From Acidimicrobiia bacterium (GTDB lineage: Bacteria; Actinomycetota; Acidimicrobiia; Spongiisociales; ZC4RG35): a stretch of DNA of 60,137 nt. The notes below the pieces were generated by a model, which worked only from the letters and a program-made list of their open reading frames with translations, did not search any database and had not been told where the DNA came from. Shown piece after piece: positions 19,440 to 29,203 of the stretch. Each line of letters starts with the position of its first letter. The first letter of the stretch is position 1. The stretch covers positions 1 through 60,137 of the forward strand of contig DATKCM010000082.1 of the NCBI GenBank assembly GCA_035513195.1, given 5' to 3'. Made by a program: the position numbers and the translations under genes.

Positions 19440-20270
19440 GTGGAAGTCCTGCTGGGGGGGATCACCTCGATTCTCTACGGGGTGGCCGATTTCCTTGGAG
19501 GCGAGGCTTCCCGCAAGGTCACCGCTGCCACCGTCGTGGTCTGGTCCGGCATCTTCTCGTTCCCGTTGCTCCTGGTCGTGGCATCTTTGGCCGGCGGAGG
19601 CGCGTCGAATGCGGACTACCTGATCGGATTCGGAGCAGGCATATCCGGAGCAATCGGGCTGGTGATTCTGTTTACCGGGCTGGCCAGGGGTCGCGCCGCG
19701 ACGGTGGCGCCCCTTTCGGCTGCTCTGGGTGCAGTGGTCCCGGTGGTCGTCGCGGTGATAGCGGGCGACCGCCCTTCCATCCTGGCCTGGGTCGGTGTCG
19801 GAGTCGCGGTTCCGGCCATCGCCCTGTCGGCCTGGACCGATGACGAAGCAGGATCGACTCGCTCCGGCCTTGTCTACGGGGCAGGTGCCGGCCTCGGCTT
19901 CGGCGGCTTTGCCGCGATTATCGGGCTCACGGACGACAACTCGGGGTTGTGGCCGCTGGTGACTGCGCGGGGCGGCCTGGTCGCGGTTGTTGTGATTCTG
20001 GCGGGATTGGGCGCCTGGAAACTGCAGGCATTTTCTGCTGCGCCGAGGGCGATCATTCTTGGTAACAGCGCCCTCGATGTCTCTGCCAACATCATGCTGA
20101 TCTTCGCGCTGCGAGCAGGGTCTTTCGCACTTGCTGCAGTCGCAGCGTCATTCTATCCCGCGGTAACCGTGATCCTTGCCAAGGTCGTGAATGCCGAGTC
20201 GCTGAGAGGACGACAGGTAGTGGGGATCGTGATGACGTTGGTGGCAATGGCGCTCATAGCATCCAATTAG
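19440..20270 (+). CDS. polytopic membrane protein, probable EamA/DMT-type transporter
   Basis: 276 aa, Gly/Ala/Val-rich, about 9-10 TM helices in two halves. GTG start. The family call is weak. Confidence 0.5.
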   Translation: MEVLLGGITSILYGVADFLGGEASRKVTAATVVVWSGIFSFPLLLVVASLAGGGASNADYLIGFGAGISGAIGLVILFTGLARGRAATVAPLSAALGAVVPVVVAVIAGDRPSILAWVGVGVAVPAIALSAWTDDEAGSTRSGLVYGAGAGLGFGGFAAIIGLTDDNSGLWPLVTARGGLVAVVVILAGLGAWKLQAFSAAPRAIILGNSALDVSANIMLIFALRAGSFALAAVAASFYPAVTVILAKVVNAESLRGRQVVGIVMTLVAMALIASN

Positions 20271-21400
20271 AGTGCCGGCCTCCGGCTGGCTTCAATCCTG
20301 TAGTCCGAAATCGTCCTTTTCAGATAGGAAAGCGCCACGTCGTATCCCCGTGTCACGTAGTTGTCCGTGTAGTGGAGCACCCGCCCGGTCCACATTCTGA
20401 AGAGGAGGCCTTCCCATGCGGCGTCGCCGAGTCGGAATAGCTCACTGGCCGCCGCCAGGAATATCCACCACGTCTCCTCGTCGAGGAAGGTGAGATCGCC
20501 TTTCTCGATCATCCGGCTTATCAATGCCGGGAACGAGTCGGGGAGACGTTCGATGGCGTCCCCCTCACCCGGAGCCAGCTCCATCGAGAGCAGCGGTCGC
20601 GTCTTCTCAACGGAGTATCCGGTCTGGACGCGCAGAGTCTCCGGTGCCGGCGACTCGGGATCCCGCGCGTGATCTGTGGCGGGCAGGGTGTCGTCGGGGA
20701 GCCCGATCACAGCGTCGAAGCACTCCACGAGCATCGTCCTGAGCTCTTCGAGCGACCCATAGAGTGTGTGTGACTTCCCTGATGCCACGTGGTGCTCAAA
20801 GATGGGAAATCCGTTGGCCACCATCGCATGGGTGAGCACGGTGTCGATTCCCCAGTCGGAGCGCTCCGCGACACCGGGAAACGCAGCGACCTTTTGGATA
20901 GCGGAACCGTTGAGGAGCAGTTCGCCTCCCAGCGGCTGGCCGATCTGCGAGAGGACTGAGCCAGGGAACTTCATAGCGAGCATGGGCCTGGTTACCAACC
21001 ATGTGATCATCGCGTCTGTAGCAGCCCGGGGAAAGGAGTGACGTACTGCATCGAACCCGGCGTCGGCAGCCTTCTCCGCGCCGTCGATCCACTCTGAGTC
21101 GAAATTGGTGATGTCGGCGTCGTAGAAGTGGAGCCTGTCGACTCCTTCGGCTGCCGCCCGTTGCAAAGCGGTGTTCATCGCGTCGCCTTTTCCAGGTCGA
21201 TAGGTTCCGATTCGCTCCTCGGGAATCACCTCGACCCCGGAGCCGGAGGACCGGGCGATTTCACCTGCGTGCTTGTTGACCTGATCGGATCTTCCCACAG
21301 CCCAAACCGTGTCGACTCGAGGGTGACTTGCCGCGGTCTGCACGTTGGCCAGGACCAGGCCGGGGTCTTCGTCCATGAAGGGGATGGCAACCGTGCTCAT
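20267..21400 (-). CDS. mgs: mannosylglycerate (or glucosylglycerate) synthase-like GT-A glycosyltransferase (GT78-like)
   Basis: 377 aa. Blocks AIPFMDEDP..AASHPRV, RPGKGDAMNTAL, HFYDADITNFD, RHSFPRAATDAMITW, QPLGGELL, RSDWGIDT, LRTMLVECF and LLFRMWTGRVLHYT match my recollection of Rhodothermus marinus mannosylglycerate synthase. This is memory-based and needs a search. Confidence 0.55.
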   Translation of the reverse strand: MSTVAIPFMDEDPGLVLANVQTAASHPRVDTVWAVGRSDQVNKHAGEIARSSGSGVEVIPEERIGTYRPGKGDAMNTALQRAAAEGVDRLHFYDADITNFDSEWIDGAEKAADAGFDAVRHSFPRAATDAMITWLVTRPMLAMKFPGSVLSQIGQPLGGELLLNGSAIQKVAAFPGVAERSDWGIDTVLTHAMVANGFPIFEHHVASGKSHTLYGSLEELRTMLVECFDAVIGLPDDTLPATDHARDPESPAPETLRVQTGYSVEKTRPLLSMELAPGEGDAIERLPDSFPALISRMIEKGDLTFLDEETWWIFLAAASELFRLGDAAWEGLLFRMWTGRVLHYTDNYVTRGYDVALSYLKRTISDYRIEASRRPAL

Positions 21401-21438: not shown

Positions 21439-21462
21439 TCTGTCATCGGCGCCGTCTACGCT
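21439..21462 (+). promoter_or_regulatory. RecA-NDp/PafBC-like DNA-damage promoter motif upstream of herA (TCTGTCA-N11-TACGCT)
   Basis: TGTCA at 21441-21445, then 3+8 nt, then the TANNNT hexamer TACGCT at 21457-21462. The herA ATG lies 8 nt after the hexamer with no SD. Spacing matches the tTGTCRgtg-8nt-TAnnnT consensus. Confidence 0.45.
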
Positions 21463-21470
21463 CGCGGCGC

Positions 21471-23141
21471 ATGGCAGATTTGGTCGGAAGGGTCATCGGC
21501 ACCCGGGACTCCACTCCGCTGGAGTTTTGGGTGGGCGTAGCGGAGGGCGAATACCTCCAGCTTGACGACGTCGTGGCCCTCGAACGGGTGCTTCCGACCG
21601 GCGAGATGGTCAAGATGTACGGGATGGTGGGCCAGGTCGTTGCCCGCCACGAGGGCGCCCGATTCGATTCCGATGTGTTTCTGATCGAAGAGGGCATCCT
21701 CCCGGCCCAGGTGACCGAGGCGGCGCAGGTGACATCCACACGCTTCGAGCCGGAAGTCTTCGTGCCACCCATCCCGGGCCAGGCCGTCCGGATCGCCACC
21801 GGGGACGAGCGAGACAAAGCATTGTTTTTCGATCGGATGGAAGAGCGATTCCCGGTTGGCCTCGCACGGAACGGCGAGCCACTCTGGGTGAACTTCGAGT
21901 TCCTAAACGGTGATCGAGGAGCTCACGTCAACATCTCAGGGATCTCGGGGGTCGCCACGAAAACGTCCTACGCCACTTTCTTGCTCCATTCCCTATTCAC
22001 CAGCGGCGTGCTTGGTAGCGCTTCGGTCAACACCAAAGCCTTGATCTTCAATGTGAAAGGCGAGGACCTTCTCCACCTGGACCGCCCCAACAAGAACCTC
22101 GACGACGACCAGCGTCTTGGTTATACCCGTCTCGGCCTCCCCTCGACGCCTTTCGACTCGGTCGGGATGTTCGCCCCTCCCCGCATTGGCGACCCGAGAG
22201 CGACTGCCGATGTCGCCTCGCGGACTGACGTCACCTCATTCTTCTGGACGATCCACGATTTCTGCTCCGGTGACCTCATGCCGTTCTTGTTCTCTGATGC
22301 CGAGGACGACCGGGCCCAGTACACAACCGTGGTCTACAACGTTATGGCCCAACTGCGGCACGCTGAGTCGACCGACACCGGTGCCGCGATTCTGGAGGGC
22401 GTGAAGCTCCGAACCTTCCGCGAGCTGGTCGACCTGATCACAGACCGGGTCCAGGATGAGGAAACCAGGCGGGTATGGGCCGGACCTGCGATCGGAATGG
22501 GAACGGTCAATGCCTTTGTCCGTCGGCTTCAGGGGGCGGTCCGGCATATCGAGCGTTTGGTCCGGGCCGACGTGCCCAACCCGGAGAAGCACCGAGTTCG
22601 GCTGGATGTGAACCAGGTCACCGTTGTCGACTTGCATAATTTGAACGACCGGGCCAAGCGGTTTGTGGTTGGTGTGACCCTGCGCAAAGCGTTCGAGGAC
22701 AAGGAACGGGCCGGACAGAGCCGCGAGTTGTTGATGGTCGTCCTCGATGAGCTCAACAAATATGCCCCCAGGGAGGGCACCAGCCCGATCAAAGAGGTGC
22801 TTCTCGACATGGCAGAGCGTGGCCGTTCCCTCGGAGTGATACTCATCGGTGCCCAGCAAACCGCCTCGGAGGTGGAACGGCGCATTATCGCCAACTCGTC
22901 GATCCGGGTGGTAGGCCGGCTCGATTCGGCTGAGGCGTCGCGAGAAGAGTACGGCTTTCTCCCGGCGGTCCACAGACAGAGGGCAACGATCATCAAGCCG
23001 GGAACGATGATTCTCAGCCAGCCCGAGATCCCGGTGCCGCTCGTCCTCGAGTTCCCGTTCCCTGCTTGGGCGACCCGCGCCGCAGAGGCGATCGAAGAGG
23101 TCGGTGCTCACATTCCGGACGACCCGTTCGCGGGATTGTGA
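21471..23141 (+). CDS. herA: HerA-type (DUF87/FtsK-HerA superfamily) hexameric ATPase/translocase
   Basis: 556 aa. N-terminal HAS-barrel-like segment GRVIGTRDSTPLEFWVGVAEGEYLQLDDVV, P-loop region NISGISGVATKTSY, Walker B LMVVLDELNKYAP, and GVILIGAQQTASEV downstream. Confidence 0.75.
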   Translation: MADLVGRVIGTRDSTPLEFWVGVAEGEYLQLDDVVALERVLPTGEMVKMYGMVGQVVARHEGARFDSDVFLIEEGILPAQVTEAAQVTSTRFEPEVFVPPIPGQAVRIATGDERDKALFFDRMEERFPVGLARNGEPLWVNFEFLNGDRGAHVNISGISGVATKTSYATFLLHSLFTSGVLGSASVNTKALIFNVKGEDLLHLDRPNKNLDDDQRLGYTRLGLPSTPFDSVGMFAPPRIGDPRATADVASRTDVTSFFWTIHDFCSGDLMPFLFSDAEDDRAQYTTVVYNVMAQLRHAESTDTGAAILEGVKLRTFRELVDLITDRVQDEETRRVWAGPAIGMGTVNAFVRRLQGAVRHIERLVRADVPNPEKHRVRLDVNQVTVVDLHNLNDRAKRFVVGVTLRKAFEDKERAGQSRELLMVVLDELNKYAPREGTSPIKEVLLDMAERGRSLGVILIGAQQTASEVERRIIANSSIRVVGRLDSAEASREEYGFLPAVHRQRATIIKPGTMILSQPEIPVPLVLEFPFPAWATRAAEAIEEVGAHIPDDPFAGL

Positions 23142-23162
23142 TTCAGGGTCGGCAAAACCGAA

Positions 23163-23186
23163 TCTGTCACACCGGGCCAATACGAT
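23163..23186 (+). promoter_or_regulatory. second RecA-NDp/PafBC-like motif, upstream of mre11/sbcD (TCTGTCA-N11-TACGAT)
   Basis: TGTCA at 23165-23169, 3+8 nt, TACGAT at 23181-23186. GTG 23194 lies 7 nt after the hexamer. Same core and same spacing as the herA copy. Confidence 0.45.
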
Positions 23187-23193
23187 CGAGATC

Positions 23194-24327
23194 GTGACAG
23201 TGAAAATCCTCCATACATCCGATTGGCATGTTGGCCGGCGAATCGGCGGGCACGACAGGTCGGCAGAGCATCGTTTGGTCCTCGACGAGATTGTCGGCCT
23301 GGCCGCCGACAACAGTGTCGACTTGACGATTGTCGCCGGAGATCTCTTCGATACGGCCACACCGACGCCGCAAGCCGAAGCCATTGTCTGGCGGTCCTTG
23401 TTGGAGTTGTCGAGTGTGTCTCGAGTCGTCGTTGTTGCTGGCAACCACGACAACGCCGCCCGACTCGAAGCGGTCGCACCTCTCCTTGCATTGGGCCGGA
23501 TCACAGTTTGCGCGACAGCAACCAATCCGGCCGATGGTGGTGTGCTTGAACTTCCTGAACTGGACACCCGGGTCGCAATGCTTCCGTTCATCTCCCAACA
23601 GGGGATCGTGCGGGCAACCGAGATCATGAACCTCGATCCTGATCAACACGCCGGGCTCTACGGCGAGCGCATCGCGGTGCTGATAGAGCGACTCACCTCG
23701 GAGATGGGTCCCGACTCGGTGAATGTCCTTACCGGCCACCTAACGGTTTACGGAGCACTGGCCGGTGGCGGGGAGCGCCAGGCTCACATCTTCGGTTACG
23801 CAATTCCATCGTCGGCATTCCCCGGACATCTCTCTTATGTCGCCCTCGGTCATCTCCATCGACAACAGAAGATGCCTCACGGCGCTGCGGTCTGGTACTC
23901 AGGATCACCGCTTCAACTCGACTTCGGAGAGGTCGACGACCAGAAAGGGGTCCTGCTGGTCGAAGCCGCCCCCGGTCTCCCAGCAAAGGTCACCTCGATC
24001 CCGCTACGGGAGGGGAAACGGTTGGTCACCCTGCGTGGCACGCTCGACCAGGTGCTCGCCCGAGCTGGAGACCTGGGGGACGTCTATGTGAAGGTCGAGC
24101 TCGACGAGAAAGCCCGGGTCGGCCTCGCCGACCGGGTCCGCGCGGCCATCCCCGATGTGGTTGACGTGAAGCTCCGTGCGAGCGGTGGGGTGGGGGGACG
24201 ACAACTCGAAGACCGGACCTCCGTTACCGGGCCGGAAGCATTCAAGAAGTACCTTGAGGACAACGGCGTCGACGATCCGAAAGTCGAGGCCCTCTTTGCC
24301 GAGCTTCTCGAGGAGGTGAGTTCCTGA
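23194..24327 (+). CDS. sbcD: Mre11/SbcD family DNA repair nuclease
   Basis: All five calcineurin-like phosphoesterase motifs are present: HTSDWHVG, VAGDLFD, VAGNHDN, LTGHL, ALGHLH. The start is GTG 23194 (leaderless by promoter spacing) or GTG 23200 (MKILHTSDWH). The first 30 codons of ORF 23104.. are unlikely to be coding. Confidence 0.85.
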   Translation: MTVKILHTSDWHVGRRIGGHDRSAEHRLVLDEIVGLAADNSVDLTIVAGDLFDTATPTPQAEAIVWRSLLELSSVSRVVVVAGNHDNAARLEAVAPLLALGRITVCATATNPADGGVLELPELDTRVAMLPFISQQGIVRATEIMNLDPDQHAGLYGERIAVLIERLTSEMGPDSVNVLTGHLTVYGALAGGGERQAHIFGYAIPSSAFPGHLSYVALGHLHRQQKMPHGAAVWYSGSPLQLDFGEVDDQKGVLLVEAAPGLPAKVTSIPLREGKRLVTLRGTLDQVLARAGDLGDVYVKVELDEKARVGLADRVRAAIPDVVDVKLRASGGVGGRQLEDRTSVTGPEAFKKYLEDNGVDDPKVEALFAELLEEVSS

Positions 24328-26684
24328 GACCTCTGTCCATAGAGTTGGAAGGCTTTTTCGCCTACCGGAAGCGGGCCCTGGTCGACCTTTCCGGGATTGA
24401 CTACTTCTCACTCGAGGGCCCAACCGGTTCGGGAAAGTCGAGCCTCATTGACGCCATGATTTTTGCCCTCTACGGAAAGATTCCACGGCTTGGCGGGAAC
24501 ACCGTCGCCCCCGCGATTTCCGCAGGAGCCGATAGGGCGCGGGTGTCCTTCAGCTTTCTGTCAAATGGTGTCGAATACACGGCAACCAGGCAGTTGGAGC
24601 GAACGCAGGCGGGAGGAGCCAGAGCGACCGAGGTGCGACTCGAAAGCGGTGAAGATGTAATCGCCTCCGGGAGTGCAGATGTGAGCCCCGAGGTCACCCG
24701 AATTCTGAACCTCTCATACGAGGACTTCACCCGCACTGTCGTATTGCCTCAAGGTGAGTTCGCCCGTTTCCTGACAGCGACACCAAAGGATCGTCAGGAA
24801 CTGCTGCGCGGCCTTCTCGGTCTCGACCTGTACCGCACGATGGGCTCGCTGGCGCGCACACGAGAGCAGGTCGCCCGCTCGGAATCGCTCTCCGCTTCGA
24901 GTCGCCTGAATGACCTAGCGGTGCCTTCCGAGGAGGATCAGAGAGCAGCCAGGGAGCGGCTCACGGCGATCGTAGAGCTCTCCGGGAGAATCGACAACGA
25001 CGAGGAGGAATTGAAGCGCCTCGAGGACAGCGTTGGCTCGCTCAAGGAGAGCGCTGACCAAACGAGCGGTGCCCTGGCACGGCTACGGGAGTTGAGTCCC
25101 CCGCCAAACCTCGAAGAGCTTTCGGCGTTGCTTGCCCGTGCCTCGGAAGAGACAGACATGAATGTTGCCAAGCTGGATGAGCTGGAGAAACGGCAAACGG
25201 CTGCAGCCGAAGAGTTGAAATCCCTTCCCGACATCGGGAGCCTGACCCGATTCGTCGACCTCTATGCCCGCCTTGAAGGGATCGAGGAGGAGATCGCGGG
25301 CATAGATCTCGTCGGTGCCCGCACCCGCCTCGAGAACGCGGAGGCCGCAGTGGTCGAGGGGAGGGAAGCACTTGCTGCGGCACGACGAGAGCAGGAGGAT
25401 GCGAGAGCCGGCCATGCCGCCCACGACCTCGCCCGACGCCTGACGCCCGGAGACCAGTGTCCGGTCTGCCAACAGTCGGTGGCAGTCCTGCCTGAGCCGA
25501 CGGCACCCGTCGATCTCGACGCCATCGATGCTGCCGCCGAGGTGGCGGCTGCCCGGCTCGACAACGCCCGCGAGGCAGTTTCGGGTTTCACCCGTGACCT
25601 GGCCAACGAGGAGGCAGCCCGGAAACAGCTCTTGATCAAACGAGAGGAGCTGACTGCAGATCTCGCCCTGGCCCCTGACCGTGGGGCGATCCCTGGTCTC
25701 ACGGCGAAAATCGAAGCAGCCTCCAGGGCCGTGGCAGACCTCGACGAGCAAAAGCATGCAGTCGCCCGCCGGACAGCCGAAGCGGAGGAGCAGCGGTCAC
25801 GTCTCGCTGAAGAGCAACGGTCGCTCGGCAAGCTCCTGATGGGGCAGAGGGAGAAGCTGGTCGATCTGAAGCCTCCGATAGCCGAGAGTGAGGACATCCT
25901 CATTCAGTGGAAGGAGTTGCTCGCCTGGAAGGAAGTGCTCCTTGTGGACATGGCTGGAGCCGAGGTCGGGCTCCGGGAGCAGATCGGTGCCGCCACCGCA
26001 CGCCTTGCCGCCTCCGTCGCCGAGCTGAACGCGAGGCTGGAGGCTGTGGGGATCGTTGCGGGGAAGTCTCCTTCGGTGGCGGTTGCCCGCGCCGAAGAAC
26101 AAGTCAAACAGTCGGTTGCCATCCAAGCCCAGATAATCGAACAGGCAGCCGTGCTGCGTGACGAAGTGACTGCAGCGTCCGAGAAAGCCTCCGTCGCTGA
26201 GTCTCTTGCCAGGCATCTCCGGTCGGATGGCTTTGAAAGATGGATGATGGTGGGAGCGATTGCAGAGCTCGTCTCGGGAGCAAACACCATCCTCGACGAG
26301 CTGTCTCGCTCGTCGTATTCACTGCATTCGGATGAAGGCGGATCCTTCGACATCGTCGACCACACAAATGCAGACGAGATCCGGCCAGTATCCACCCTGT
26401 CGGGTGGCGAGACGTTCCTGGTCTCCCTGGCCCTCGCCCTTTCCCTGGCTGAGACCCTCGCGTCGGGAGGTGGGTCCCAACTCGACGCAATCATCCTCGA
26501 CGAGGGTTTCGGTACTCTCGACGACGAGTCGCTGGATGTCGTCGCGTCGGTGCTCGAGAGCCTCACGACGTCGGGTCTCATGGTCGGGATCATCACGCAT
26601 GTCAAGGCTCTGGCGAGCAGGGCCCCCGCCCGGTTTGTGGTGAACAAGGGGCCTGCCGGCTCCCGGGTTGAGGCTGTCGAGTGA
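24324..26684 (+). CDS. sbcC: Rad50/SbcC family SMC-like ATPase
   Basis: Walker A GPTGSGKSS, long coiled coil, central zinc hook CPVC (25458-25469), signature LSGGETFLVSLALAL, Walker B AIILDEGFGTLD, H-loop GIITHV. The track start is TTG 24345. The conserved first strand RPLSIELEGF begins at CTG 24324, which has GAGGAGG 7 nt upstream and overlaps the sbcD stop (CTGA). Confidence 0.85.
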   Translation: MRPLSIELEGFFAYRKRALVDLSGIDYFSLEGPTGSGKSSLIDAMIFALYGKIPRLGGNTVAPAISAGADRARVSFSFLSNGVEYTATRQLERTQAGGARATEVRLESGEDVIASGSADVSPEVTRILNLSYEDFTRTVVLPQGEFARFLTATPKDRQELLRGLLGLDLYRTMGSLARTREQVARSESLSASSRLNDLAVPSEEDQRAARERLTAIVELSGRIDNDEEELKRLEDSVGSLKESADQTSGALARLRELSPPPNLEELSALLARASEETDMNVAKLDELEKRQTAAAEELKSLPDIGSLTRFVDLYARLEGIEEEIAGIDLVGARTRLENAEAAVVEGREALAAARREQEDARAGHAAHDLARRLTPGDQCPVCQQSVAVLPEPTAPVDLDAIDAAAEVAAARLDNAREAVSGFTRDLANEEAARKQLLIKREELTADLALAPDRGAIPGLTAKIEAASRAVADLDEQKHAVARRTAEAEEQRSRLAEEQRSLGKLLMGQREKLVDLKPPIAESEDILIQWKELLAWKEVLLVDMAGAEVGLREQIGAATARLAASVAELNARLEAVGIVAGKSPSVAVARAEEQVKQSVAIQAQIIEQAAVLRDEVTAASEKASVAESLARHLRSDGFERWMMVGAIAELVSGANTILDELSRSSYSLHSDEGGSFDIVDHTNADEIRPVSTLSGGETFLVSLALALSLAETLASGGGSQLDAIILDEGFGTLDDESLDVVASVLESLTTSGLMVGIITHVKALASRAPARFVVNKGPAGSRVEAVE

Positions 26685-27598
26685 GGTTCACGGTCGAGTC
26701 ATGGGATCCGGACTACGGGTCCCCATCGACAGCTGAACTGGAGGACGCCTCCGAAAACGTTGACGTCAACGTCGAGATGCCATCAGCCCAGTGGTCTCCG
26801 GTATTGCCCGAAGCCGAACCACTGTCCGACATGCTCTTCGTAGACGGGGTGCGGCGCGTCGACGCCAGTCTATGGATCGAACAACCGCCGGACTTTCCCG
26901 GCTTCGCTCTTGCCGCAACATACGCCGCAGGAGCGGTGAGATGCAACAGCCGCGCTGTCCTCGAGTCCGCGGATGTTGGCCGCGGCCTTTTCACCTCGTC
27001 CGCGGCTGACGACATCGACTCGGTTGTGGGCCTCTACAAGGTCAAGGCAACCAAAGGCACGACGTCGGAAGAGCTGTGGCTCGGCATCCAACAGCGCATG
27101 GCCGATCTCGAGGCGAAGGTAGCCCGCGAAGCAGGGCCGGCTGAGGTTGTGGTTGTCGACGGTCCGCTGTCACATCATCGTGAGATCGAGAACGCAGTTG
27201 GGTACATCAAGACACAGAAGGTCCAGTACCTCCCGATTGAACTGCGGCAGGTGCTCACCTCCTTGCTTCCCGGGTTCAGGACTCCGCTGTTCCTCACCAC
27301 CACGTCCTGGAGCCGATTCTCGTGGTATCTCCGCCTGTCCAACCACTCCGGCCCAGCAGGCGGCCTGGTTCGATGCGAGATCGACGGGGACATCGATCGG
27401 GTGCAAGCGATCCGACTGGCAGACCGCGTCAGCGCATCCCTGCCCCGGTACGCTTCCGACCGGCACAAGGATCCGCGCGCTCCCCAGAATCTTTATCCAA
27501 TCGGTGGGCTGGAGCGTGATCTGCGGCACCGCCTCGGCGACCGCGAAATGGCTATCCGAGCGTTGCGTCGGGCGGCGGTCGACGTAGGAGCCCGTTGA
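26681..27598 (+). CDS. nurA: NurA-like 5'-3' nuclease (HerA partner)
   Basis: 305 aa. Acidic-motif pattern MLFVDGVRRVD ... VVVVDGPLS ... GYIKTQK is consistent with the NurA RNase-H-like fold. GTG overlaps the rad50 stop (GTGA). It holds the last position in a herA-mre11-rad50 cluster. Confidence 0.6.
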   Translation: MRFTVESWDPDYGSPSTAELEDASENVDVNVEMPSAQWSPVLPEAEPLSDMLFVDGVRRVDASLWIEQPPDFPGFALAATYAAGAVRCNSRAVLESADVGRGLFTSSAADDIDSVVGLYKVKATKGTTSEELWLGIQQRMADLEAKVAREAGPAEVVVVDGPLSHHREIENAVGYIKTQKVQYLPIELRQVLTSLLPGFRTPLFLTTTSWSRFSWYLRLSNHSGPAGGLVRCEIDGDIDRVQAIRLADRVSASLPRYASDRHKDPRAPQNLYPIGGLERDLRHRLGDREMAIRALRRAAVDVGAR

Positions 27599-27608
27599 AA
27601 ACGCAAAC

Positions 27609-27633
27609 CGGGGGGCTCAGACAAAACCCCCCG
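27609..27633. terminator. GC-rich hairpin (CGGGGGG-N11-CCCCCCG) between convergent nurA and anti-sigma genes
   Basis: 7-bp G/C stem read directly from the sequence, 11 nt after the nurA stop. No U-tract. Confidence 0.4.
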
Positions 27634-27647
27634 ATTGCGATGTGGAG

Positions 27648-27729: not shown

Positions 27730-27981
27730 CTATTCGGCAGCGATCGAGCCTATGTCGGAAATGTCGGCATTCCGAATAGCGAGTAAATCGCCCGCCGGGA
27801 GAAAGTCGAGATAGCTGACATCGCTGTCGACCAGGGTTGTCTGGCTCGGAGCTGCAAGTGGCGTGGTCCCCGACGGGATAGGCACTCCGAGGCGGGCCGC
27901 TGGCGTAGCGCTGATCGCGACGATGATGACAAGGGCCGTCAGGGCCATCGCCCCGGACTGCGCCAGAGGCTTGGCGAGCAC
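27730..27981 (-). CDS. single-pass membrane protein, probably the TM + extracytoplasmic part of a frameshifted anti-sigma factor
   Basis: 83 aa from GTG 27981 with one TM helix (AMALTALVIIVAISA). The frame stays open upstream back to the sigma-factor stop. An N-terminal ORF (ATG 28124, MHSEMQRPEPPKIDRFVETLDRRL...) joins this frame if one base is added in the G6 run at 28011-28016. Confidence 0.4.
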   Translation of the reverse strand: MLAKPLAQSGAMALTALVIIVAISATPAARLGVPIPSGTTPLAAPSQTTLVDSDVSYLDFLPAGDLLAIRNADISDIGSIAAE

Positions 27982-28739
27982 CTTGAGCTCGCGAACAGGT
28001 TCCGAATCGAGGGGGGAAGATAAGCCCGTCGATAAGCCAGCGTCTCGAGTCGAAGCCTGCGGTCGAGGGTTTCGACGAAACGATCTATCTTCGGCGGCTC
28101 GGGCCTCTGCATCTCAGAGTGCATAGCCCGCCTCCTCCTGACCTGCTCCGACGACCACGCTGTTGTCGAGGTGGCTTCGCAACGTCTTGCGGGCGCGGGA
28201 AGCCGCAAGCGCGCAGCATTCGGCGTGATGTCCAGCGTGACGGCGGCTTCGCTGGGGCTCAGCCCGTCATAGGCGACCAACTCGAGAACCTCCCGCTCGG
28301 ATCGTGTCAGCCGCGCCATGGCCTCCTCCAGAGCCGGCGCCTGCCTGGCTGCATCGATGGCGGAAGCCACGGCGTCGTCCTCAGCTGCCGTGAAAACAGG
28401 GAAGACGTTGGAAACCTTGACCTCCAACCTCCTGTTGCCGACGTACTTCCTGCGCTGCTTGGCGAGGAGACGGCGGGCGATGCCGAAGAGCCACGGCAGG
28501 GCAGTGTCTGTCTCAGGCCGATAGCGATGCGCCGCTTGAAGTGCGACAAGGGATGTCTCGCCGACGAGATCGGCTACGTCATCAGGGTTGGCGCAGCGCC
28601 TTATCGAGTATCGGGTTATGGGCTCTACGTGCCGACGGAAGAACGCGGAGTATGAGTCGGCTGAGCCCGCTGATGCTGCGACCAGTAATTCCGCGTCTGA
28701 ACGGTCCACCACGGCTGCATTATGCCCTTGTGTGAGCAT
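27939..28739 (-). CDS. ECF (sigma-70 family) RNA polymerase sigma factor, C-terminus apparently frameshifted
   Basis: ATG 28739 (MLTQGHNAAVV...). Region 2 is LVGETSLVALQAAHRYRP..LPWLFGIARRLL and region 4 is LTRSEREVLELVAYDGLSPSEAAVTLDITPNAARLRL. After RLRL the expected RARKTLRSHL...* continues in another frame and stops at 28114-28116. As sequenced, the ORF runs on to 27939. Confidence 0.7.
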   Translation of the reverse strand: MLTQGHNAAVVDRSDAELLVAASAGSADSYSAFFRRHVEPITRYSIRRCANPDDVADLVGETSLVALQAAHRYRPETDTALPWLFGIARRLLAKQRRKYVGNRRLEVKVSNVFPVFTAAEDDAVASAIDAARQAPALEEAMARLTRSEREVLELVAYDGLSPSEAAVTLDITPNAARLRLPAPARRCEATSTTAWSSEQVRRRRAMHSEMQRPEPPKIDRFVETLDRRLRLETLAYRRAYLPPSIRNLFASSRCSPSLWRSPGRWP

Positions 28740-28786
28740 CCGTGTCAGGAAACTGCCCCCTTTGCGACATTTGGCGCGCTCAGCCG

Positions 28787-29203
28787 CTACAGCCCGATCT
28801 GGATATCGTGACGCTCGCCTTCTGCGAGGAGACGGTTCCTCTCCTCGGGGTCGAGTATCCGGTCGACGAGTACATGGCGTTTCCGATTTGTGGTCACCAG
28901 CACCAACCCACGTCGACGTGGCTTGACAATTGCAGCTATCTCCTCCCACGAAAGTGAGTGGTGTCGGAGGAGGCACACCCTGACCAGGCCGTTGGCGTTC
29001 ACTTCGACCGCCAGGGGGAAGTCAAATACGACAACGGCGCCGAGGAGGGTCCCGAGAGCGCCGAAGACAATCGGAACCGCGATCGGGGAACCCACGGAAA
29101 GTGTCAGTAGGGCCATCGCCAGGAGGAGTGGCGGCGTCGCCAGGGCGAGTATGACGCGAACCGTCGACTCGGAGATGCGCATCGGTTCCGTGGGTTTTTC
29201 CAT
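28787..29203 (-). CDS. membrane protein with C-terminal bacterial PH-like domain
   Basis: 138 aa. Two TM helices, then GLVRVCLLRHHSLSWEEIAAIVKPRRRGLVLVTTNRKRHVL, which resembles bPH-type domains. Confidence 0.5.
   Translation of the reverse strand: MEKPTEPMRISESTVRVILALATPPLLLAMALLTLSVGSPIAVPIVFGALGTLLGAVVVFDFPLAVEVNANGLVRVCLLRHHSLSWEEIAAIVKPRRRGLVLVTTNRKRHVLVDRILDPEERNRLLAEGERHDIQIGL

Follow-up and report, generated by a model that had tools for sequence, protein, structure and literature searches.

A herA-sbcD-sbcC-nurA cluster of bacterial-type proteins in Acidimicrobiia, with candidate PafBC-type promoters

The 60,137-nucleotide (nt) contig DATKCM010000082.1 from an Acidimicrobiia bacterium (assembly GCA_035513195.1; this whole stretch is called the window below, and all coordinates are window positions) carries four successive open reading frames (ORFs) on its plus strand, of 556, ~377, 786 and 305 codons (21471-27598), which encode a HerA-type ATPase, the Mre11-family nuclease SbcD, the Rad50-family ATPase SbcC and a NurA nuclease. 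The four-gene cluster is common in this lineage, recurs in other phyla and can be named by standard annotation. Its promoter motifs make it look inducible by DNA damage, and we infer induction itself from them. We propose a chromosomal module, switched on by damage, whose SbcCD part processes DNA ends and whose HerA-NurA part carries out their resection, an account that we hold to be probable. The conserved pair of PafBC-type leaderless promoter motifs is the new observation made here, and the breadth of the linkage also adds value.

Bacterial end resection is usually taught in terms of RecBCD, AddAB, AdnAB or RecQ/RecJ, and HerA-NurA is treated as archaeal. The cluster matters in this setting as HerA-NurA is stably maintained in one cluster with SbcCD across an actinobacterial class that is large and mostly uncultured. 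Since both the proteins and what they probably do biochemically are known already, and automatic annotation names them, the system is not of a new kind.

The four proteins and the layout of the cluster

An earlier note on this DNA had proposed a HerA-type ATPase, Mre11/SbcD, Rad50/SbcC with a zinc hook and NurA, and profile, PDB and structure searches agree on all four identities; each motif that it listed was found in place, with CPVC at exactly 25458-25469. For HerA, a PDB sequence search aligned residues 2-551 with residues 12-611 of Deinococcus radiodurans HerA (7F6D_B, E=9.3e-148), an alignment that spans the full length with ~50% of the aligned residues identical as judged by eye, and this places the first ORF in HerA and not in another ATPase family. 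Pfam returned nothing at E<=0.01 and only a sub-threshold HAS-barrel (E=0.019), and the identity was therefore settled by the PDB sequence searches. With a family profile made from 29 diverse members, D. radiodurans HerA scored 1.6e-215 and archaeal HerA (9X1L, 4D2I) only 1.6e-7 and 6e-5, the archaeal profile scores being no better than those of defence-associated HerAs; in the single-sequence search of PDB, archaeal HerA was not matched at E<=1. Walker A (GISGVATKTS, amino acids (aa) 157-166) and Walker B (VVLDELN, aa 423-429) are present, as is a catalytic acidic residue in NVKGED (aa 194-199), which aligns with the KGED segment of D. radiodurans HerA; K164/T165, D426/E427 and NVKGED are invariant in the 29-sequence family alignment. 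By alignment, K164/T165 and D426/E427 correspond to K175/T176 and D487/E488 of the D. radiodurans protein, which were shown to be essential by mutagenesis (PMC9960219). Judged by sequence, HerA is a member of the D. radiodurans HerA clade of the FtsK-HerA superfamily and a predicted hexameric ATPase/translocase.

The 305-aa ORF matched the Pfam NurA hidden Markov model above its gathering score (PF09376, 28.0 bits against 21), and a sequence search of PDB returned bacterial NurA structures only, with D. radiodurans NurA (7F6D_H) at 1.3e-16 and Thermotoga TM1739 at 5.3e-7. The AlphaFold2 model, which came from a shallow alignment (>=73% identity), was of moderate quality (predicted local distance difference test 58.7, predicted template-modelling (TM) score 0.62) and was used for fold-level confirmation only. 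Its top Foldseek matches were 1ZUP_A (2e-12, TM 0.60) and 7F6D_G (2.6e-12), followed by archaeal NurA (9X1N_G, 3TAI_B), and as modelled the ORF has the RNase H-like fold of NurA. The protein shows the motifs FVDG, VVVDGP, GYIKT and KDPRAPQN, the residues D55, D160, K177 and R266, and W8 with a pin-like segment at 10-15. Once the 20-residue numbering offset of the D. radiodurans PDB chain had been deduced from alignments, D55, K177, R266, W8 and P10-P15 could be equated with D53, K201, R309, W8 and pin 10-15 of D. radiodurans NurA, all of them essential by mutagenesis (PMC9960219). D55, K177, R266 and W8 are invariant in 24 homologues, and NCBI names close relatives 'DNA double-strand break repair nuclease NurA'. 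On these comparisons HerA and NurA are both assigned to the bacterial Deinococcus/Thermotoga-type clade.

SbcD scored well above the cut-off of NCBIfam TIGR00619 (1.1e-47, 162.9 bits against 77.65) and matched Pfam Metallophos (4e-12), while SbcD_C, the Pfam SbcC-binding C-terminal domain, reached 23.4 bits against a gathering score of 24.4. All five phosphoesterase motifs are present (DWH, GDLFD, GNHD, GH and GHLH, at aa 7-10, 47-51, 81-84, 178-181 and 217-220). SbcC matched NCBIfam TIGR00618 (sbcc) at 9.9e-71, with 238.9 bits against a cut-off of 478.5, a shortfall that fits its much shorter coiled coil; it matched the Rad50 profile at 1.5e-29, and Pfam AAA_23 and SbcC_Walker_B were above their thresholds. 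The split ABC head carries GPTGSGKSS, LSGGE, ILDEGFG and ITHV, with the CPVC hook at aa 379-382 of 786. The protein is best described as SbcC-like (SMC family ATPase), as NCBI annotates its relatives.

The earlier note had called the cluster archaeal-style, which holds for the gene order and not for the proteins, all four of which are closest to bacterial counterparts. One explanation for such an order would be the recent horizontal transfer of a thermophilic-archaeal herA-mre11-rad50-nurA operon into a bacterium, since the order equals that reported for the archaeal operon. The Thermus literature, too, regards bacterial HerA as archaeal in origin (PMC5448004). However, SbcD and SbcC favour bacterial profiles (for SbcD, bacterial sbcd at 1e-47 and Sulfolobus Mre11 at 3e-13), and their PDB matches rank E. 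coli, Thermotoga and archaea in that order: SbcD matched Escherichia coli SbcD (4LTY/6S6V) at 2e-32, Thermotoga Mre11 at 8e-18 and Pyrococcus furiosus Mre11 at 4e-8, and SbcC matched E. coli SbcC (6S6V_C) at 4e-40, Thermotoga Rad50 at 6e-31 and archaeal Rad50 at 2e-17 or weaker. HerA reaches archaeal HerA by profile only, at the values given above, and NurA finds bacterial NurA structures only when searched by sequence. Other phyla have different orders of the same bacterial-type proteins, and G+C content is uniform across the window (0.60-0.65, with no local deviation), the cluster resembling its flanks at 0.61-0.63. Recent archaeal transfer was rejected, and we regard it as exceedingly improbable.

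The features of the locus are listed in Table 1. The herA gene, which the earlier note had begun at 21439, starts at ATG 21471, and position 21439 just precedes the promoter-like motif upstream of it. The start/stop overlaps reported for the last three genes (CTGA and GTGA) are real: the sbcD stop TGA (24325-24327) overlaps CTG 24324, which opens the SbcC N-terminus MRPLSIELEGF, and the sbcC stop TGA (26682-26684) overlaps GTG 26681 of nurA. There is no overlap between herA and sbcD, which are separated by a 52-58 nt spacer with a promoter-like motif of its own; the sbcD start is probably GTG 23194 (leaderless) or GTG 23200. The sbcC start is the non-canonical CTG 24324, with TTG 24345 as an alternative. 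We do not take this CTG for an error because the bases are identical in an independent metagenome contig, a GGAGG Shine-Dalgarno sequence lies 7 nt upstream and no canonical start occurs between the upstream in-frame stop and TTG 24345; the homologous codon is TTG in the closest relatives and ATG or GTG in others. The genes sbcD, sbcC and nurA are thus translationally coupled, which suggests that their products are made in balanced amounts. Beyond nurA, 8 nt past its stop, is a G+C-rich hairpin whose T-tail lies on the minus strand. It may therefore serve the convergent downstream gene, of which it is probably the terminator, and it is possibly bidirectional.

Table 1. Features of the herA-sbcD-sbcC-nurA locus and its immediate neighbours (window positions)
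Feature	Position	Strand	Description
Mannosylglycerate synthase gene	20267-21400	-	Divergent from herA; Pfam MGS_GT 3e-82 and MGS_C
Candidate PafBC/RecA-NDp-like promoter motif before herA	21441-21462	+	TGTCAT-N10-TACGCT; -10 TACGCT at 21457-21462
herA	21471-23141	+	Bacterial-type HerA, predicted hexameric ATPase/translocase, 556 aa
Candidate PafBC/RecA-NDp-like promoter motif before sbcD	23165-23186	+	TGTCAC-N10-TACGAT
sbcD	23194-24327 (alternative start 23200)	+	Mre11-family nuclease subunit
sbcC	24324-26684	+	Rad50-family ABC ATPase, 786 aa, short coiled coils
Zinc hook CPVC	25458-25469	+	SbcC aa 379-382, coiled-coil midpoint
nurA	26681-27598	+	Bacterial-type NurA nuclease, 305 aa, GTG start
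G+C-rich hairpin	27606-27636	.	13-bp stem; T-tail on minus strand
ECF-type sigma factor gene	27939-28976	-	Sigma70_r2 and r4_2; ~110-aa Arg/Pro-rich N-terminal extension

Conservation of the cluster in the lineage and in other bacteria

A one-genome-per-species scan gave at least 576 relatives, and the best 80 loci were examined, with the partner genes located by tblastn. Nearly all of these 80 are titled Acidimicrobiia, Nitriliruptoria/Euzebya, Actinomycetota or bacterium, and a few titles of metagenome-assembled genomes (MAGs) name other phyla. The order herA-sbcD-sbcC-nurA on one strand was found at 59 of the 80 loci. A further 14 were consistent as far as they extended before being interrupted by a contig end, the flank stopped before nurA at one, four were too short for judgement and at two the partners were absent within 8 kb of herA. 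The exact HerA sequence was also found on environmental metagenome contigs, with the same neighbours, and the carriers include a cultured species, Salinilacustrithrix flava (NZ_CP133888.1). Among the relatives the median gap is 5 nt between sbcD and sbcC and 9 nt between sbcC and nurA, and the gap between herA and sbcD is 300 nt or less at 46 loci. We conclude that sbcD-sbcC-nurA is a tight core and that herA is its near-constant neighbour. Where genes lie between herA and sbcD they were considered as extra partners and rejected as unrelated; they include a flavin adenine dinucleotide-type oxidoreductase-like ORF (by eye), a DsbA-like and a mannosylglycerate-synthase-like gene.

These counts bear on two further claims of the earlier note. 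That bacteria usually carry sbcCD alone or herA-nurA alone does not stand for this HerA family, given the four-gene order at 59 of 80 related loci and four-gene clusters in more phyla. The note also took it as refuting if the arrangement proved common and already characterised in the lineage; it is common there, and it is not experimentally characterised.

Wider contexts were sampled from 50%-identity cluster representatives of the HerA family and the contigs that encode them; a profile search with a diverse HerA alignment added no taxonomic breadth, its best 120 matches all being from Actinomycetota. The order seen in the window recurs in Nonomuraea gerenzanensis and on a 451-kb linear plasmid of Streptomyces sp. 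BB1-1-1 (NZ_CP134205.1). The order nurA-herA-sbcD-sbcC is found on a conjugative plasmid of the cyanobacterium Sphaerospermopsis, in Dehalococcoidia (Chloroflexota), where there is one extra SMC-like gene, in Candidate division WS2 and in one unnamed lineage, and Coprothermobacterota have sbcD-sbcC-nurA-herA. Unannotated neighbours in the other phyla are NurA homologues with the catalytic D, K and R. Four-gene clusters, some of them permuted, are present in at least five further phyla and in at least three gene orders, and from this recurrence across taxa the linkage is taken to be widespread. Three sampled distant HerA members (33-40% identity) stand alone among housekeeping genes, with no NurA or SbcCD nearby, and therefore the partner set of HerA is not universal.

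The extra gene on the Dehalococcoidia contig (13598-14776) encodes a 392-aa SMC_N/AAA_15/AAA_23 ATPase and lies directly 3' of sbcC; its product could be a fifth partner.

Parts of this distribution have precedents. In Oceanithermus, sbcD and sbcC lie downstream of a herA homologue (PMC5448004), and HerA/NurA homologues in Actinobacteria have been mentioned in a review (PMC8708640). A description of the four-gene cluster was not found in the literature on HerA/NurA in Actinobacteria, Streptomyces and cyanobacteria.

Candidate promoters and predicted regulation

There appear to be two transcription units, herA and sbcD-sbcC-nurA, each with a putative -26/-10 promoter of the PafBC/RecA-NDp type and a leaderless start. 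The herA ATG is 8 nt past the -10 hexamer of its motif, which falls within the 70-nt herA leader region, and GTG 23194 of sbcD lies 7 nt past the -10 element of the spacer motif. The actinobacterial LexA-independent DNA-damage promoter has been described as 'tTGTCRgtg-8 nt-TAnnnT' (PMC5656591). The in-vivo PafBC motif is 'tGTCgg(N10)tA(N3)T', with a GTC triplet that does not vary across actinobacteria; PafBC substitutes for -35 recognition via 'sigma adaptation' (PMC8635444). Both window motifs fit this promoter type. A sigma-70 consensus scan of the region found no promoter, a result that fits a -35-less promoter and is uninformative alone. A scan of both strands of the 60-kb window matched only the herA and sbcD motifs, whether the strict motif or a relaxed one ([TC]GTC-N12-TAnnnT) was used, and ~0.74 strict matches would be expected by chance.

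Conservation of the motif was assessed in the related loci with shuffle controls, which leave the kinship among loci in place. Before herA (78 regions, the window and 77 loci) 64 had the relaxed motif and 37 the strict one, against shuffle means of 0.56 and 0.14, with the start codon 7-8 nt past the -10 in most; before sbcD (74 regions) the numbers were 42 and 22, against 0.44 and 0.09. It is mainly at loci where the stop of herA directly adjoins the start of sbcD that the sbcD motif is lacking, so that one promoter would serve both genes there. In comparisons of diverged loci, conservation is lost between and around the two motif elements, as would be expected of a functional footprint. A search of the 80 loci (1.2 Mb, both strands) for motifs with a start codon after them that opens an ORF of >=100 codons gave 71 matches, 45 of them at herA and 23 at sbcD; of the three remaining, one is at a gene for an RmuC recombination protein (Pfam 2e-50). 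The two candidate PafBC/RecA-NDp-type promoters predict LexA-independent induction by DNA damage with leaderless transcripts, and their confirmation would widen the known range of the regulon.

Two side observations concern the upstream regions of relatives. The RmuC-family gene, in one relative's locus (minus strand, motif at ~1200 in plus-strand coordinates), has GTC-N12-TAnnnT with a start codon 6-9 nt downstream, and this motif hints at a wider damage regulon in the lineage. In a Microthrixaceae MAG, tandem repeats of roughly 'caacacgcccccgggcaacacgcccccg' are present ~80 nt upstream of the aligned herA start.

Genomic context, proposed role and relation to known systems

Scans of the flanking ORFs confirm the housekeeping flanks described in the earlier note. 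The neighbours belong to metabolism and transport (a GSDH-like dehydrogenase, HIT, EamA, mannosylglycerate synthase, an extracytoplasmic function (ECF)-type sigma factor, GpsA, the glycine cleavage P-protein, Na+/H+ antiporters and others), and no integrase or transposase turned up in the 19 flanking ORFs scanned. Mannosylglycerate synthase is a compatible-solute enzyme best known from thermophiles and halophiles, and its synteny with herA holds in many Acidimicrobiia loci, down to ~75% HerA identity. The ECF-type sigma factor has a long N-terminal extension (Table 1), and it may really start further downstream than annotated.

HerA ATPases and SMC-like ATPases are frequent defence components, and another possibility is that the HerA-type ATPase, the nuclease and the SMC-like ATPase degrade foreign DNA in anti-phage or anti-plasmid defence, as in Sir2-HerA, DUF4297-HerA, Lamassu and Wadjet-type systems. 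PADLOC gave LmuB to SbcC (2.4e-26), mad8 and the defence HerA models to the C-terminal half of HerA (1e-10 to 1e-4) and a partial match to mad3. However, the PADLOC-DB defence-system models yielded no specific component match; the partial similarities are of a generic P-loop/SMC kind, and the matches to SbcC, SbcD and D. radiodurans HerA are far stronger. Among the mobile copies, the cyanobacterial one lies near a transposase, and the Streptomyces one adjoins TIGR02680, TIGR02678 and DUF2397 genes, which we take to have a Wadjet/JetABC-like look, and a gene for an ImmA/IrrE metallopeptidase. The context of the Streptomyces copy is defence-island-like, unlike that of the window, where the flanks are syntenic across many species. 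HerA relatives were found on 6 of 72,556 plasmid records (one of them actually an 11.8-Mb chromosome) and NurA relatives on four, and in phages only two records matched HerA, at ~25% identity. WYL-type regulators that sense DNA damage also govern some defence systems (PMC10693628, PMC12392091); the promoter motif here, however, matches that of the actinobacterial DNA-repair regulon and is also present before RmuC. Near-universal, position-stable presence across the species of the lineage, unlike the patchy occurrence of defence islands, speaks for a core function. We rejected the idea that the cluster belongs to a known defence system, and a role in defence seems to us very unlikely. The preference for repair over defence in the earlier note is borne out by the synteny, the rarity on plasmids and phages and the generic nature of the PADLOC matches.

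In the module that we propose, SbcD would act as an Mre11-type Mn2+ nuclease and SbcC as a Rad50-type ABC ATPase dimerising through its CPVC zinc hook and, by analogy, SbcCD would recognise and clip blocked or hairpin DNA ends. The HerA hexamer would thread duplex DNA via its central pore into a NurA dimer, where the N-terminal pin segment of NurA would split the strands and its RNase H-like sites would digest them, to give a 3' tail for RecA. We infer a physical or functional cooperation of SbcCD with HerA-NurA from gene linkage and archaeal work, and we propose the in-vivo role of the four-gene module as a putative one.

A number of points weigh against this proposal. Deletion of nurA-herA made D. 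radiodurans ~10-fold more, not less, resistant to ultraviolet (UV) light and mitomycin C (PMC9960219); even for the bacterial model, then, a resection role that simply promotes repair is not established, and the physiological outcome is uncertain. The interaction of SbcCD with HerA-NurA in bacteria was explicitly left open in PMC4663267, and the four-gene bacterial clusters are without experimental characterisation in the literature. At 13 loci 0.5-3.8 kb of unrelated genes lie between herA and sbcD, and with the two loci that have no partners within 8 kb this means that HerA is less tightly bound to the set. The neighbours of the Streptomyces plasmid copy count in the same direction. Neither the Streptomyces and Nonomuraea clusters nor the non-actinobacterial loci have the promoter motif, and control by PafBC is putative.

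It may also be that the identities are right and the role is not productive end resection, with the proteins serving to degrade or restrain recombination intermediates or to process stalled forks or palindromes, or with HerA helping to translocate or segregate DNA or partnering RecJ. The phenotype of the D. radiodurans deletion would fit such a role, as would the interaction of D. radiodurans HerA with RecJ (PMC4663267) and the pleiotropic heat and UV phenotypes of hepA, the herA homologue of Thermus thermophilus (PMC5448004). E. coli-type SbcCD is, moreover, best known for hairpin and palindrome cleavage (background in PMC2288612), and herA is the most loosely linked of the four genes and solitary in some lineages. 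On the other side, the tight coupling of nurA and sbcCD and the damage-type promoters point to break processing, and D. radiodurans NurA-HerA generates resected ends in vitro (PMC9960219). A role other than resection is in our judgement unlikely, and it differs from the resection module in physiological outcome, not in biochemistry.

The resection module can be carried further. Bacterial-type HerA-NurA might ancestrally and typically be a four-component machine with SbcCD, Deinococcus and Thermus being atypical in having no such linkage, and in Acidimicrobiia/Nitriliruptoria the machine might belong to a PafBC-like LexA-independent regulon and be a principal pathway of double-strand-break resection, alongside or instead of RecBCD, AddAB or AdnAB. 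We offer this larger claim tentatively, and on balance doubt it. The question raised in the Deinococcus literature, whether SbcCD works with HerA-NurA, is now approachable in organisms where the four genes are linked. Overall, the observation made in the earlier note is confirmed and its interpretation is partly supported.

Among known systems, HerA-NurA of D. radiodurans (7F6D, 7WRW, 7WRX; PMC9960219) belongs to the same clade, and the residues needed there for ATPase, nuclease and unwinding activity are conserved here. In D. radiodurans, however, nurA-herA is a two-gene operon unlinked to sbcCD, whereas in the window nurA is coupled to sbcC and herA lies upstream of sbcD, and the predicted regulation is of the PafBC type, an actinobacterial system. 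Of the solved structures, E. coli SbcCD (6S6V) comes closest to both SbcD and SbcC and has the nuclease motifs, the ABC-ATPase motifs and the CxxC hook in common with them; SbcC of the window has 786 aa against 1048 aa in E. coli, with much shorter coiled coils, and differs also in its linkage to herA and nurA. The mycobacterial PafBC promoters (PMC8635444, PMC5656591) share the same 22-nt tGTC-N12-TA-N3-T pattern, with equal spacing and no -35, but at positions 5-6 the mycobacterial motif has GG where the motifs here are A/C-rich. No herA or nurA gene was seen in the two papers on them, and the putative link of PafBC to Acidimicrobiia is drawn here from the motif.

The order of the archaeal operon is reportedly herA-mre11-rad50-nurA, as Constantinesco et al. 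are said to have described in 2004. The window cluster has the same four roles, order and co-directional tight packing as the operon of Sulfolobus, Pyrococcus and Thermococcus, and archaeal resection by HerA6-NurA2 with Mre11-Rad50 serves as its functional model. None of the four window proteins is of archaeal type, however, NurA has 305 aa against 395-430 aa in the archaeal NurA chains matched, and to judge from the motifs the cluster probably has two promoters rather than one polycistronic mRNA as in the archaeal operon. The contacts between NurA and HerA of D. radiodurans are mainly ionic and not hydrophobic, unlike the archaeal ones (PMC9960219). The nurA-hepA(herA)-sbcD-sbcC cluster of Oceanithermus profundus (PMC5448004) likewise links a bacterial HerA-NurA to a bacterial SbcCD; it comes from a different phylum, and sbcD and sbcC follow herA in it as they do in the Cyanobacteria, Chloroflexota and WS2 loci. 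Its authors proposed a function akin to that of the archaeal double-strand-break repair system (PMC5448004).

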